NCBI GenBank assembly: GCA_037442745.1
Contig: JBBIPP010000001.1
Span: 1-13,788 of the forward strand
Direction of reading: 5' to 3'
Source of the DNA: an archaeon
GTDB lineage: Archaea > SpSt-1190 > DYHY01
Length of the DNA: 13,788 nucleotides
Translations under genes and position numbers: made by a program
Notes under the pieces: generated by a model
What the model was told of the DNA's origin: nothing
Database searches by the model: none
Seen by the model: only the letters and a program-made list of their open reading frames with translations
In this document: positions 1,165 to 12,068 of the stretch, in pieces
How the letters are laid out: the number at the start of each line of letters is the position of its first letter
How positions within the stretch are numbered: the first letter of the stretch is position 1

Positions 1165-3300
1165 ATGTCCTCAAGCTCCAGTTATGGCTCTTCTCAGTCT
1201 GGATATTCCCAGACTGGGAATGTTAACCCAACCCTCTCTGGAGCCGGAAACCTCCCGACATACAAGAGCTTCTTCACTCCGGAGGAAACTGCGCTATTCA
1301 CAAGCCATTATTTCAAGGCATACAGAAGCGAGGAGAAAATAGAGGCATCAACTCTCTATGAGAAATTGTGCACATCAGTTCCCAAGTGGGCGGAAATCCC
1401 AATGCCGCTCAGCAAGGACTCTTTTGCCGGAACTCTTCGGGAAGCTCTCCTCGTCTGCACTCCGAACCAGGTTTTCACAATGGCGTTCTATTCGTTCATG
1501 TTCGCAATGTTCCTCTCAGTCTTCGGCCTGACATATCTTCCCTATTCCGGGATATTGCTCGCAGTCGCTTTCGCTACCCCGTTTCTAATTGCTGGGGTCT
1601 ATTTCCTTTATCCAATAATCAAGATACGGATGGACAGGATGGCTGTTGTCGGGGAAGCTCCCTTGGCAATTCTCTATCTAGTAATATCCCTCCGCGTTTC
1701 CCCGTCCCTTGAGAGGGCAGTCTCCTATGCCAGCAAGAACGTTCCGGAGCCGATTGGGCGGGAATTCAAGTTCCTGATGTGGGACGTTTCAATGAAAACG
1801 AAAAATTCTATGAAGGACGCTGTCGGGGCATATAGCGCAAAGGTAAAATCCTGGGCTCCGGGATATTCGGACGCGCTCTATCTTGTCGCGAACTCGGTTG
1901 AGGAGCCCTCGAACAAGAGCAGGCTCGCAGTCCTTGAAAAGGCAATGGAGAACGCTCTTGAGAGCACTAAATCAATTATGGACAATTTCGCGCGGGGCCT
2001 CGGGATGCCTGTCGCGGTCACTAACGCCTTGGCAATCCTCCTACCGATTCTAGGCCTTGTAATGGCCCCGATGGCCTCAATGTTCATGAAGCAGGCGGGG
2101 GCGCTTCCAACGCTTCTCGTCCTTGTCTATGACTTTTTCCTTCCGGCAGTCCTCTTTGGAGTAGTTCTCCTGATAATATCTAGAAGGCCGTCCACATTTT
2201 CAGAAATTGACATTTCGGGCGATCCGGAAATTCCAAAGGAGGGCTATTACAGGATAAAGGGAGCGGGCGACATCCCGATTGGCCTCGTCTGTTTCGCGAT
2301 TTTCATTGTCCTTGCGTTCGTCTCGATCTCAATAGTAATCAGCACTGCAGGGGGCGTCTTCCTTCCATCTCCTCCGAAAGGAATGGGGAATGCCACTGGA
2401 TACACTGCCCTAAACACGCTTCCAATTGTCCTCGCGCTCGGGATATCAATAGGCCTCTACTATTACCTGAAGAACGTCCAGAAAATAAAGAGCAGGAAGA
2501 GGATTATAGAAATGGAGCGGGAATTCGCTTCAAGCCTCTTTCAATTGGGAAACATTCTTGAGCAGGGCAAACCATTGGAGGAGGCCTTTGAATATTCCGC
2601 CAAGGGCCTGAAAGGGACGAACTCGGCCGAGTTCTTCGTTGCAACAATAAGGAACGTCCGGCAAATGGGATTCCCGATTAAGCGGGCGATTTTCGACCCG
2701 AAATACGGCTCAATGAGCAAGGTGTCCTCTACCCTTATGAAGAACATTCTGGGAGTAATTATCGAGTCAGCGGACAGCGGGCCGATTGTAGCGTCCCAGA
2801 CAACCCTATCAATTTCAAACTATATCAGGAACATCCAAAACGTCCAGGAGAAAATTACAGACAGCCTATCTGACAACGTCACATCAATGCGCTTCCAGGC
2901 GCTTATTCTCGTCCCCCTTATTAGCGCGGTAATTGTCGGCCTGACGCAAATGGTGACTAACATCCTCCTTGCAATGAGTAAGCAGGTTGGTGAGCTTTTC
3001 AGTGGCGCTGAAAACACTGGAATTGCAATGTCCTTGTTCTCAACTTCCCTCTTCAATGTTGGAAACATTATGCAGGGCTCCTTCCTCCAGATTGTCGTAG
3101 GCATCTACACACTAATTCTCCTAGCAACTCTTGGCTTTTTCGTTGCAGGTCTCTCCAACGGAATACAGGACAGAATCGAGGTTGAAATGAACATTGGAAA
3201 AACCCTTTTCCTAGGGACAATTATATACTCAATAATAGTCGTTGTTATTGTGACAACATTCACTGGTCTTACTGAAGGTCTTATGGGAGGGGGGTTCTAG
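1165..3300 (+). CDS. tadC: Type IV pilus/archaellum membrane platform protein, T2SS-F family (TadC/TadB/FlaJ-like) with two T2SSF domains, 711 aa
   Basis: Two repeats of the T2SSF pattern: 'EAPLAILYLVISLRVSPSLERAV...EPIGREF' and 'EREFASSLFQLGNILEQGKPLEEAF'. Each is followed by TM hairpins, with about 9 hydrophobic helices in total. Lies directly upstream of a prepilin array. The symbol is a family-level assignment. Confidence 0.88.
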   Translation: MSSSSSYGSSQSGYSQTGNVNPTLSGAGNLPTYKSFFTPEETALFTSHYFKAYRSEEKIEASTLYEKLCTSVPKWAEIPMPLSKDSFAGTLREALLVCTPNQVFTMAFYSFMFAMFLSVFGLTYLPYSGILLAVAFATPFLIAGVYFLYPIIKIRMDRMAVVGEAPLAILYLVISLRVSPSLERAVSYASKNVPEPIGREFKFLMWDVSMKTKNSMKDAVGAYSAKVKSWAPGYSDALYLVANSVEEPSNKSRLAVLEKAMENALESTKSIMDNFARGLGMPVAVTNALAILLPILGLVMAPMASMFMKQAGALPTLLVLVYDFFLPAVLFGVVLLIISRRPSTFSEIDISGDPEIPKEGYYRIKGAGDIPIGLVCFAIFIVLAFVSISIVISTAGGVFLPSPPKGMGNATGYTALNTLPIVLALGISIGLYYYLKNVQKIKSRKRIIEMEREFASSLFQLGNILEQGKPLEEAFEYSAKGLKGTNSAEFFVATIRNVRQMGFPIKRAIFDPKYGSMSKVSSTLMKNILGVIIESADSGPIVASQTTLSISNYIRNIQNVQEKITDSLSDNVTSMRFQALILVPLISAVIVGLTQMVTNILLAMSKQVGELFSGAENTGIAMSLFSTSLFNVGNIMQGSFLQIVVGIYTLILLATLGFFVAGLSNGIQDRIEVEMNIGKTLFLGTIIYSIIVVVIVTTFTGLTEGLMGGGF

Positions 3301-3303
3301 GGA

Positions 3304-10240: not shown

Positions 10241-12068
10241 GGGGAAAAGGCGGGCGGAAATAAACTATCTCCTAGCGGCAATAGTTGGCTTCATTTTCGG
10301 GGGAATGGTTCTTGCAACAGTTCCCTCAATTGTCGGCCAGCTTTGGAAAGCAACTGATGTCTGCGGGAAATCCTTGAAAACAAAGCCCGCGGAAATAAAG
10401 GACAAGCTCCTTGAAGTGTGCTCAAACCCATTGGCTGAGGGCGCATTCAGGGAGTTCTCGGCAACCGAGCCATCTTGCGAGGAGGAAACGAGATTTTACG
10501 CGGCAACCTGCGACAAGATCGGACTCTGGCTCTCGACTGGAAGCTATTTCAGGCGCATGGAATTTGTCCCTTTATACATTACCCCTGGAATGCTTCCTTA
10601 TGGGAGCGGTTACGGAATATATTGGTCAATTATGATGCTTGACACTGCAGACGCTTCCTCCAAAAAGGCCCCTCCGGCAGATATTGAAGCCCAGATTGCC
10701 AAGATTTATTCCGAAGCGCGGTCAATTGACGACCCTGACAGCGTCTTCTCTCAGGTCGGAAAAATTACTGGGGGAGACTTGTCAAAAATCCCTTCAGAGG
10801 ATCTTGGCAGGTTCATTTCGAACAACCTGCAGGCTGTCTTGAACGCGGAAGAAACTGTTCTTGTCCCTTGGGGGCTTGATTCAACTCTCGTAATATCGGG
10901 AGTCGGAATTGAGGAAATTACTCCGGAGATTGCCGCAGGGTCGACTGAAGCGAAGGCTCTTGCAAGGGACTGGCAGGGGGCTTTCAAGGACAAGCTTATT
11001 TCCGCATATTCGGTAATTAACCAGCCAGTCCTCGCGGAGACTGAGATTTCAAGGAACATTGGAAAAATATCGGAGGTCTTTGTCTCAACTCCTGATAACG
11101 GAATAACTCTCAGGCAAGGGAAAACGGACATCCTTTCCAGGGCATATTCTGACATTGTACAAAGGGAAGGGGGCGACCTATCAGGGAGCGCAGGGCAGTT
11201 CAGGGAAGTTCCGGGGAACCCTTCCGGATGGGAAAAATATGTAAACAGAGTTTATGATTTCAATAACAAGAACATTCTTTACAGGGACCCGCCCAAATTC
11301 ACCCAGTGCAAGGCGCCGGGGAATTTCTGCAAAATCTCGGAGCTTTTCTCAGAAAAGCTGGCGAACACCCAAATTAACCTCGACGCAATGTCTGAGAGAT
11401 ATTCCCGGATTGTCTCGGCCAGGTCATCAGCCCTCAGTCTGATTGAGGGGAAAATCCTCTCGGGAGAGTGCGAGACATATTCAGGAACAGGCTATAGAAT
11501 TCCCACCTGCGCAGTCGTTGTCTCCTGCTCAAAGACTGATTCCGAATTTTACAGGGAAATTTCCGTTGACGCGTGCGTTATTTCAGCAGTAAACCTTCTC
11601 GGAAACCCCTCCCTCTACCCAATAGCGTCTGTTGAAAGGAAGGATGCTCTTGAGAGCTGGGACATTACTCTTTCCGACAGGCACATTTTCACCGGAACCT
11701 GCTCGTCCTCCGTTCCTATTGAATGCCCCTATTTCGATTCCTTGACAAATTCCGAATCAGCGAAAAGAACAGTTCTCCTCTGCCTGCGGAACTTTGGAAA
11801 GGACTGCGAAAATGACGGGAACTGCTTTTGCTGCGAGACTGTTTCGTGCGAGAACGAGGTAGAGTTCCACACAAAGACTTTCGGGAAAACTGTTGTGACA
11901 AATGTGGAAGGACTTGCTCCTGCCGGAGGGAAGAGAATTGTGACCCATGTCAATGGCTCGGTCTATCCATTCTGCATACAGGAGGACCAAAATGTCCTTG
12001 AAATGGCTTCCTGCGTCTGGAACAACAACAACAACAACAACAACAACAACAAAAAAAGGAACGAGTGA
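10206..12068 (+). CDS. Giant Cys-rich pilin/adhesin-like protein (KRRA|E), 611-620 aa, with a poly-Asn tail
   Basis: RGKRRA|EINYLLAAIVGFIFGGMVLATV; 20 Cys. The start may instead be TTG 10233, which has a GGGGGGAG RBS at about 10216-10223 and an 8-nt overlap with the upstream gene. Confidence 0.85.
   Translation: MRARGEKYKLPRGKRRAEINYLLAAIVGFIFGGMVLATVPSIVGQLWKATDVCGKSLKTKPAEIKDKLLEVCSNPLAEGAFREFSATEPSCEEETRFYAATCDKIGLWLSTGSYFRRMEFVPLYITPGMLPYGSGYGIYWSIMMLDTADASSKKAPPADIEAQIAKIYSEARSIDDPDSVFSQVGKITGGDLSKIPSEDLGRFISNNLQAVLNAEETVLVPWGLDSTLVISGVGIEEITPEIAAGSTEAKALARDWQGAFKDKLISAYSVINQPVLAETEISRNIGKISEVFVSTPDNGITLRQGKTDILSRAYSDIVQREGGDLSGSAGQFREVPGNPSGWEKYVNRVYDFNNKNILYRDPPKFTQCKAPGNFCKISELFSEKLANTQINLDAMSERYSRIVSARSSALSLIEGKILSGECETYSGTGYRIPTCAVVVSCSKTDSEFYREISVDACVISAVNLLGNPSLYPIASVERKDALESWDITLSDRHIFTGTCSSSVPIECPYFDSLTNSESAKRTVLLCLRNFGKDCENDGNCFCCETVSCENEVEFHTKTFGKTVVTNVEGLAPAGGKRIVTHVNGSVYPFCIQEDQNVLEMASCVWNNNNNNNNNNKKRNE
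11517..11643 (+). repeat. Exact 127-bp direct repeat, copy 1 (inside the giant pilin gene)
   Basis: Identical to 13662-13788. Confidence 0.95.
12021..12050 (+). repeat. (AAC)10 microsatellite encoding poly-Asn
   Basis: Ten perfect AAC units in frame, five codons before the stop. Confidence 0.95.

Follow-up and report, generated by a model that had tools for sequence, protein, structure and literature searches.

The window analysed here is a stretch of 13,788 bases of archaeal DNA (JBBIPP010000001.1), an entire contig (C1) of a 20-contig, 1.14-Mb assembly referred to below as the source genome (G000). It carries a gene for a 711-amino-acid (aa) platform protein of the FlaJ/TadC type, followed directly on the + strand by an array of 14 open reading frames (ORFs) between 3304 and 12068, all of which (14/14) encode a protein with an N-terminal hydrophobic segment. 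A motor ATPase gene belongs to the same locus and lies beyond the window (Table 1). We read the window as holding the platform and the subunit operon of a clade, specific to DPANN, within the type IV filament (T4F) superfamily, an assignment that is probable by a modest measure.

The source genome has a completeness of 94.5% and matches the archaeal small-subunit (SSU) rRNA model at 1442.7 bits. Among the best 80 ATPase loci, the nearest named relative is a record labelled Candidatus Micrarchaeum sp. (78% identical), and most of the others are labelled Woesearchaeota, Nanoarchaeota, Nanoarchaeia or Pacearchaeota. This small-genome organism can fairly be called a DPANN archaeon, as an earlier reading made from the letters of the window alone (the sequence-only reading) had proposed.

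Table 1. Genes of the locus, its neighbours and other filament genes discussed in the text (window coordinates unless another scaffold or record is named; ↓, predicted cleavage position; Cys, cysteine; AF2, AlphaFold2 model)
Feature	Position	Strand	Basis
711-aa polytopic membrane protein, divergent double-T2SSF (FlaJ/TadC-like) platform	1165..3300	+	hydrophobicity, profile comparison
766-aa T2SSE-family ATPase	C6:71135-73435, outside window, ~1.7 kb upstream of platform		PF00437, E 4.5e-16
Mini pilin-like gene 1, 95 aa (longest ORF; Met17 start likely), leader end RKG, helix ~14 residues on	3304..3591	+	leader RKG↓D
125-aa protein, two leader-plus-helix modules, second after KRKRVKRKG↓Q	3593..3970	+	two hydrophobic segments
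61-aa mini pilin-like protein, leader MTKRRAQNG↓S	3967..4152	+	hydrophobic segment
43-aa mini pilin-like protein, RKS↓Q (G003 orthologue RKG↓Q)	4171..4302	+	51% identity over 37 aa, E 3e-7
217-aa Cys-rich pilin-like protein, leader end RMG↓A, 8 Cys after helix start	4296..4949	+	G003 orthologue
218-aa Cys-rich protein, N-terminal helix, acidic leader without basic motif	4946..5602	+	hydrophobicity, Cys
73-aa mini protein, N-terminal helix, leader end GRG↓F	5584..5805	+	72-aa positional counterpart in G003
214-aa Cys-rich subunit, likely start Met46, RKA↓V; ordered five no. 1, C-x2-W motif	5729..6373	+	head profile
483-aa, 22-Cys subunit, RKG↓D; ordered five no. 2; candidate adhesin	6361..7812	+	orthologues (G003 E 1.8e-52; G004 counterpart E 4e-4)
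155-aa, 8-Cys subunit, ERKG↓ALQ; ordered five no. 3	7803..8270	+	G004 counterpart E 5.6e-4
226-aa, 8-Cys subunit, RKA↓E; ordered five no. 4	8240..8920	+	G003 E 2e-31; G004 E 3.7e-6
184-aa, 6-Cys subunit, GRKG↓AEQPIW; ordered five no. 5; best-conserved array gene	8994..9548	+	alignment, AF2
223-aa, 4-Cys protein, N-terminal helix, KRKNGG↓RN	9569..10240	+	G003 orthologue E 3.4e-10
620-aa, 20-Cys terminal subunit, KRRA↓E (G003 GRKG↓D); candidate tip or adhesin	10206..12068	+	G003 orthologue
454-aa soluble protein, Ala/Lys/Glu-rich	2-1021 (full gene L026:13578-14942)	-	
277-aa surface protein, lipobox-like MSAC, Thr/Pro-rich linker	12106-12939	-	
207-aa surface protein, signal sequence, C-terminal anchor	13022-13645	-	
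Giant protein, > 1111 aa, M23 peptidase and SLT transglycosylase	L027:2412-5747; C6 about 87911-91246, open to scaffold end	-	M23 E 1.1e-16; SLT E 1.3e-4
Type IV filament genes elsewhere in the genome	C6:1717-5629, C17:11510-15051, C11:11997-16029, C16:13615-15069, C15:25633-26517		
~190-aa paralogues in related loci	L057:6020-7754, L067:7076-8862, L087:8164-8727		

The array genes and their conservation

The array genes are tightly packed, 11 of the 14 junctions overlapping or leaving 3 nucleotides (nt) or less, with remaining gaps of 18, 20 and 73 nt when the longest-ORF starts are taken. The second ORF is peculiar in that its 125-aa product has two hydrophobic segments, and this two-module layout is kept in two related genera (G001, 121 aa, and G003, a member of the same family, 148 aa), the modules of the G003 orthologue being preceded by RRKG or RKG. 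Thus the outline drawn by the sequence-only reading, of 15 closely packed modules in 14 genes of 43 to ~620 aa (here 43-620 aa), is borne out. The mini subunits are presumably headless, as Flp and EpdE are.

The same reading had also placed a short leader and a G/A/S residue before the helix of every gene, and this part holds less completely. A [KR][KR][G/A/S] motif within the 16 residues ahead of the helix is present in 10 of the 14 array genes compared to 44 of 251 controls, taken as the other N-terminal-hydrophobic ORFs of the genome (Fisher p 3e-5; the related genomes are kin, and the enrichment p-values are accordingly overstated and indicative only). The motif also occurs in 13 of the 16 genes of the G003 array, whereas a plain rule of [KR] followed by G/A/S is weak (5 of 10 called array ORFs vs 122 of 288 controls). 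Leader lengths range from 4 to 56 aa with the longest ORFs and become short only when internal starts are chosen. The claim that the leader is basic in all but one gene stands, the sole acidic leader being that of the 218-aa protein. Beyond the window, 53 of 115 genes from nine arrays have [KR]G ahead of the helix (vs 44/251 controls), and leaders in distant arrays are textbook class III (e.g., MKG↓Q, KKG↓VELS and RKG↓Q). These results support the view that the array genes carry predicted class-III-like leaders enriched over background.

Cysteine makes up 3.9% of the residues in the nine larger array proteins compared to 1.18% genome-wide (3.3-fold), and the number of cysteines after the helix start is even in 9/9 of them (the chance of parity alone is 0.002). 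Content and parity fit disulfide-bonded ectodomains, in line with the predicted disulfide stabilisation of the earlier reading. A search for VKOR in the 94.5%-complete genome was negative, and this single query identified no disulfide-forming enzyme. Neither the platform nor any of the 14 array proteins reaches the cut-off of a Pfam or NCBIfam family. PF07790 has no match in the genome and PF04021 has weak matches only, at places other than the array, so that the heads are, as had been stated, not recognisable as known pilins or archaellins. Nothing points to a virus, since no PHROGs family was matched by the nine proteins tested; no RNA holder is listed for the array.

Conservation is best documented for the 184-aa subunit, for which nine database relatives and five sequences from related loci gave a 14-sequence alignment. 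Residues I13, W14, A22, V25, G26, M29, C61, W64, C121, D122, C123, L127 and C160 are invariant in it, and the helix motif PIW-L-V-LLLA-VVG is nearly so. Between cross-order orthologues, residues 10-34 are 52-56% identical as opposed to 16-28% for residues 35-184. In this subunit, the one family in which helix and head were compared, the helix is far more conserved than the head, which at the level of sequence is the pattern of pilins. An AlphaFold2 (AF2) model of the subunit (predicted local distance difference test, pLDDT, 82.6) consists of a helix at residues 13-44 and a compact all-alpha head at pLDDT > 90, for which Foldseek returned no PDB match at E ≤ 0.001 (best E 1.4). The long N-terminal helix expected by the sequence-only reading was therefore recovered in the model and a pilin-like head was not. 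The ESM Atlas contributed leads only, namely unnamed DPANN clusters of hypothetical proteins (score 0.92). The 620-aa protein has three database relatives; its AF2 model (five sequences) has a mean pLDDT of 55.9 and is confident only at ~210-440, with no meaningful Foldseek match (best E 0.045, TM 0.08) and no usable match in the ESM Atlas.

Arrays of 9-17 N-terminal-helix genes adjoin a homologous platform in 9 of the 15 loci inspected, and the order is the same in 9/9 arrays: tiny proteins, followed by medium Cys-rich proteins and finally large ones. The G003 array is collinear with that of the window at 25-60% identity. Across orders, the genes starting at 5729, 6361, 7803, 8240 and 8994 match five consecutive genes of G004 in kept order, as seen by BLAST and by head-only profiles (E 3.6e-7, 4e-4 and 5.6e-4), the profile of the 214-aa head matching the G004/G007/G010/G005 group at E 3.6e-7. 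It is not claimed that these five C-x2-W subunits are duplicates of one another, as head-only profiles gave no significant paralogy (all E > 0.01). Among the mini genes, a same-genus orthologue (69 aa) of the first keeps GRKG-EVSTSPSK, and for the 61-aa gene no sequence homologue was found, only a positional counterpart in G003. The genes at 3304 and 4296 share a leader of ~20 aa, C-(Y/H)-QESG-x2-EI-x-RQ-x-R-(K/M)-G (window 3352-3420 and 4296-4385), with 54% identity over 26 aa; their mature parts are otherwise unrelated.

The platform, the ATPase and the coiled-coil genes

The 711-aa platform contains 10 hydrophobic segments and has no Pfam, NCBIfam or PDB sequence match; comparison of its family profile with the PDB also gave nothing useful. 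PF00482 does not match it at E ≤ 1 and has no match at the locus in a genome-wide scan. Its relationship appears when a family profile built from 19 relatives is compared by hhalign with the six canonical T2SSF proteins of the genome: residues 419-675 align at E 1.2e-7 (P 94%) and a second repeat aligns at residues 108-308 (E 1.7e-5, P 79%). Against a single canonical T2SSF sequence the comparison is weak (E 0.013). PF00482 is matched by 30 of 63 sampled representatives of the platform family (E ≤ 0.01), and of 23 close relatives two carry this domain and two are named TadB by the Joint Genome Institute (JGI). From the two repeats and the 30/63 matches it follows that the 711-aa protein is a fused double-T2SSF platform, and the TadC/FlaJ-type platform proposed from sequence alone is upheld. 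The family is widespread: a search of 1.84 billion proteins gave at least 612 representatives (E ≤ 1e-30), and it is present in 28 of 41 related genomes.

The ATPase was seen on a second scaffold of the same assembly, C6, of which the window is a redundant copy, and C6 thus reveals the DNA to the left of the window start. The motor ATPase of the locus therefore exists and, unlike the platform, lies outside the window. The 766-aa protein has a long N-terminal extension and a T2SSE core at residues 463-612. With respect to solved structures, it is closest to afGspE (2.4e-26), CpaF (2.8e-23) and FlaI (3.9e-18) rather than to VirB11 (2.4e-8) or PilT, and its NCBIfam matches to FlaI, TadA and BasE are all sub-threshold. 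Its orthologue adjoins the platform in 14/14 related loci (35-86% identity), while the genome's remaining T2SSE ATPases, four in number, are only 26-28% identical to it. At least 588 species-representative genomes encode a relative, and 68 of the best 80 ATPase loci from public genomes include the platform. An alternative of conjugation or type IV secretion (T4SS), suggested by a VirB11 type of ATPase together with the SLT hydrolase nearby, was dropped; the ATPase is nearer to afGspE/CpaF/FlaI and the platform is T2SSF-like.

Two coiled-coil genes (310 and 124 aa) lie divergently upstream of the ATPase on C6. Their Pfam matches are all sub-threshold and all to coiled-coil families. G001 and G003 have orthologues of both genes at the corresponding position, and G004 has one of the 310-aa gene there. 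Three Woesearchaeota-labelled loci combine three paralogous ~190-aa membrane proteins, two coiled-coil genes, the ATPase and the platform. Up to three such ~190-aa paralogues precede the coiled-coil/ATPase/platform genes; their shared N-terminus reads roughly ..F.D.LG..DV.LPF.L.FT..F and has no counterpart in the locus of the window. In the source genome, the ATPase and the platform are split by the 454-aa gene on the opposite strand, which encodes a lineage-specific protein without a family match. In the 14 related loci the two motor genes adjoin, and no homologue of this gene occurs.

The source genome encodes five T2SSE ATPases, three canonical loci (ATPase plus two platform genes) and one A24 prepilin peptidase, whose single gene (C15:25633-26517) has a translation containing GGGD. 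Type IV filament genes take a large share of this reduced genome.

Surrounding genes and assembly of the contig

Downstream of the array lie two lineage-specific surface-protein genes (277 and 207 aa) without homologues in the related loci. About 2 kb past the array is the gene of a giant protein with M23 and SLT domains, that is, murein hydrolase domains, here in an archaeon. Of 41 related genomes, seven have M23, among them all three others of the same family, and in G003 it lies ~8 kb past the array.

The window (1-13788) duplicates C6:73921-87943, an N gap interrupting the alignment, with an identity of 100% over 1-7640 and 99.8% over 7586-13716; this is assembly redundancy and not a second locus. 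At the right end (11510-13788), the terminal 134 bases (13655-13788) are a copy of 11510-11643 with an identity of 98.5%. Contig depth in two runs is 36.8 and 52.6 over 11517-12010, 26.7 and 38.6 over 12088-13667, and ~9-14 elsewhere. In the contig paths, a 54-nt contig spans 13638-13691 and an alternative path departs at 13667 toward the M23 gene. The picture fits a high-depth unit of ~2.1 kb (11510-13654) in two to three tandem or variant copies, comprising the C-terminal Cys-rich third of the 620-aa gene and the two - strand genes, and six clustered differences are found at 12267-12297 within this region. Near the C-terminus of the 620-aa protein, an (AAC)x10.7 repeat at 12021-12052 encodes a poly-Asn tract; public contigs break at this repeat, and the C6 copy of the gene is one codon shorter (619 aa).

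Interpretation and comparison with known systems

A type IV filament system accounts best for the locus, given its motor, the leaders, the conserved helix, the way the operon is built and the presence of an A24 peptidase; we hold this explanation, as a reading of sequence, with guarded rather than full confidence. In such a system, the A24 peptidase would remove the leaders after [KR][KR]-G/A/S, and the ATPase-driven platform would lift the helices from the membrane and stack them into a surface fibre or a short pseudopilus. The 43-125-aa mini subunits would build the shaft, and the ordered, disulfide-bonded, all-alpha-headed subunits would form, along with the 483-aa and 620-aa proteins, a priming or tip complex that may bind a surface or a partner cell, and the apparatus may serve host contact. 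A much more detailed picture is unlikely as a whole: a host-contact machine in which a short disulfide-locked pseudopilus would combine a mini-pilin shaft (one mini-pilin being released from a tandem double precursor), a tip formed as a fixed hetero-oligomer of five C-x2-W all-alpha subunits of a fold unseen in pilins, and two adhesin caps, and would in this family act with the neighbouring M23/SLT protein in attaching to bacterial hosts or breaching them.

Several observations weigh against a filament. The modelled head of the 184-aa subunit is all-alpha, without a pilin-like beta sheet or a PDB match, and the array proteins match no pilin, archaellin or class-III-signal model. Four of the 14 array genes lack the basic-G/A/S motif, and across the nine arrays the double-basic form is found in only 39 of 115 genes and [KR]G in the 53 mentioned above. 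The canonical pilins of the genome read KGQ-(A/S)S(T/V)E(Y/F)L, unlike the array leaders. Moreover, a same-strand run of at least eight such genes behind the platform occurs in only 6 of the 68 loci in which the ATPase is accompanied by the platform; the ATPase-platform pair is therefore near-universal in these lineages and the adjacent array is found in a subset. As most Woesearchaeota-labelled loci have no adjacent array, the pair can work with genes encoded elsewhere. The composite pilus or attachment apparatus of the sequence-only reading thus survives in part: platform and leaders speak for a type IV filament locus, and the modelled head lacks the sheet of a pilin.

Because the modelled head is all-alpha and no pilin family is matched, alternatives of two kinds have to be weighed, a pseudopilus or bindosome and plain membrane anchors. 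In the former, possible but on the unlikely side, the motor and the mini subunits would form a short membrane-proximal stalk displaying Cys-rich class-III-signal cargo for binding or uptake, comparable to the Sulfolobus Bas sugar-binding proteins or to the pseudopilus of type II secretion (T2SS). The logic of BasABC plus binding proteins has a parallel here in three to four mini proteins accompanied by some ten larger ectodomain proteins of class-III-like type, globular all-alpha heads are unlike the filament-packing heads of pilins, and class-III-signal binding proteins are argued to functionalise archaeal T4F (Sivabalasarma and Albers, 2026). The ATPase does match the BasE model at E 4e-20; however, the score (72 bits vs a cut-off of 1000) is far below that required and weaker than those for FlaI and TadA. 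No array protein matches any substrate-binding family in Pfam or NCBIfam, and five distinct subunits in a constant order look more like structural parts than like exchangeable cargo.

It is also conceivable, though improbable, that the array genes specify common bitopic proteins of the membrane or surface whose signal anchors stay uncleaved, and that the T4F motor serves pilins encoded elsewhere. This would account for the lack of pilin-family matches and for the motors without an adjacent array in most Woesearchaeota-labelled loci; other pilin candidates exist in the genome, and a basic residue followed by G/A/S is common before the helix of other membrane proteins (the 122 of 288 controls). 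Conversely, motif enrichment over the controls is 4- to 12-fold, and canonical [KR]G leaders recur in distant arrays. In the 184-aa family conservation is higher in the helix than in the ectodomain, while anchors tend to drift, and in nine lineages or more a tightly packed, co-directional array follows immediately on the platform. Least probable of all, and in our estimation quite doubtful, is a ComG-like pseudopilus of the competence type, by which an auxotrophic symbiont would take up DNA or nutrients. The ComGA-GG layout consists of an ATPase, a platform and several pilins, which the present locus resembles, the ATPase weakly matches the ComGA model (E 8.4e-13), and a genome reduced to 1.14 Mb implies dependence on imported building blocks. 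On the other hand, the ComGA match is weaker than those to FlaI and TadA, two large Cys-rich ectodomain proteins fit adhesion better, and no ComEC/ComEA-type channel or DNA-binding gene was found at the locus, no genome-wide search for them having been made.

The locus bears on the question of how DPANN archaea attach to a host and exchange material with it; the catalogue of type IV filament genes in this group is poor. The divergence of the platform and of each subunit is too great for standard models to pick up the present locus. Among the concrete parts that it supplies are a conserved 184-aa subunit, which is predicted to be cleaved at RKG↓A, the five ordered Cys-rich subunits, a tandem double precursor and the mini-pilins. 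If the subunits do build a contact structure, they would be targets for labelling and cryo-electron tomography in cultivated DPANN systems.

Among known systems, the Epd pilus of Methanococcus maripaludis (system 1) is similar in the many pilin-like genes per operon, a very small, headless major subunit and the [KR]G↓Q signal. It differs in its two platform genes and KGQ...E(Y/F) pilins, whereas the window locus has one fused platform; these system-1 features (two platform genes, KGQ pilins) are seen in three other loci of the source genome. The Sulfolobus bindosome (BasABC-BasEF) likewise combines small pilin-like proteins, an ATPase and a platform with larger class-III-signal surface proteins, but the ATPase of the present locus falls far below the BasE cut-off and no solute-binding domains were found by Pfam or NCBIfam.

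The sequence-only reading had called the system uncharacterised, which remains true experimentally and is only partly so in print. Two conserved type IV pilus-like loci with coiled-coil proteins have been described in cluster 2 DPANN plus Undinarchaeota, and proteomics of Ca. Nanohaloarchaeum antarcticus picked up several of the encoded proteins, the coiled-coil ones among them (Hamm et al., 2024; PMC11291902). Those loci, with a coiled-coil protein (CCP)-CpaF-TadC core, resemble the present one by layout, as coiled-coil genes adjoin a CpaF/FlaI-type ATPase and a TadC-type platform; the same layout occurs in the three Woesearchaeota-labelled loci above. In the passages of that paper considered here, the filament proteins FlaF and PilA are named in the text for locus 1 only, whereas the present platform precedes 14 pilin-like genes; the closest relative with a name is labelled Micrarchaeum. 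A Nanohalarchaeota-labelled record (L117) is found among the best 80 ATPase matches at 50% identity.

Unannotated signal-peptide genes beside FlaI/TadC in DPANN were also predicted to be probably diverse pilins (Makarova, Wolf and Koonin, 2019; PMC6393860). The window is like these "dark matter" islands in that unannotated signal-peptide genes adjoin T4F core genes in DPANN; unlike the treatment there, which in the portion considered comprises one sentence and a figure, subunit order, leaders, cysteines and folds are analysed here. The motor part is hence already in the literature and the subunits are undescribed in the searched papers, none of those found describing the Cys-rich or mini subunits of the array.

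In the parts of the recent census drawn on, T4F system 2 (clade 2 of Makarova et al., 2016; e.g., PilB3-C3 of Haloferax volcanii) is predominantly found in Methanobacteriati and has PilA-family pilins (Sivabalasarma and Albers, 2026; PMC13705601). The present locus shares with it an ATPase with an extended N-terminus, a single platform gene, multiple pilins and large adhesin-like proteins, and in both some subunits lack a clear class III signal peptide (SPIII) motif. The likeness is one of outline only, since the window has no recognisable pilin family, a platform that escapes Pfam, Cys-rich heads and an all-alpha modelled head. The same source describes ordered T4F loci as rare in Nanobdellati, with pilins scattered or unassignable; in contrast, the locus presented here indicates that at least some lineages do have a complete ordered T4F locus.

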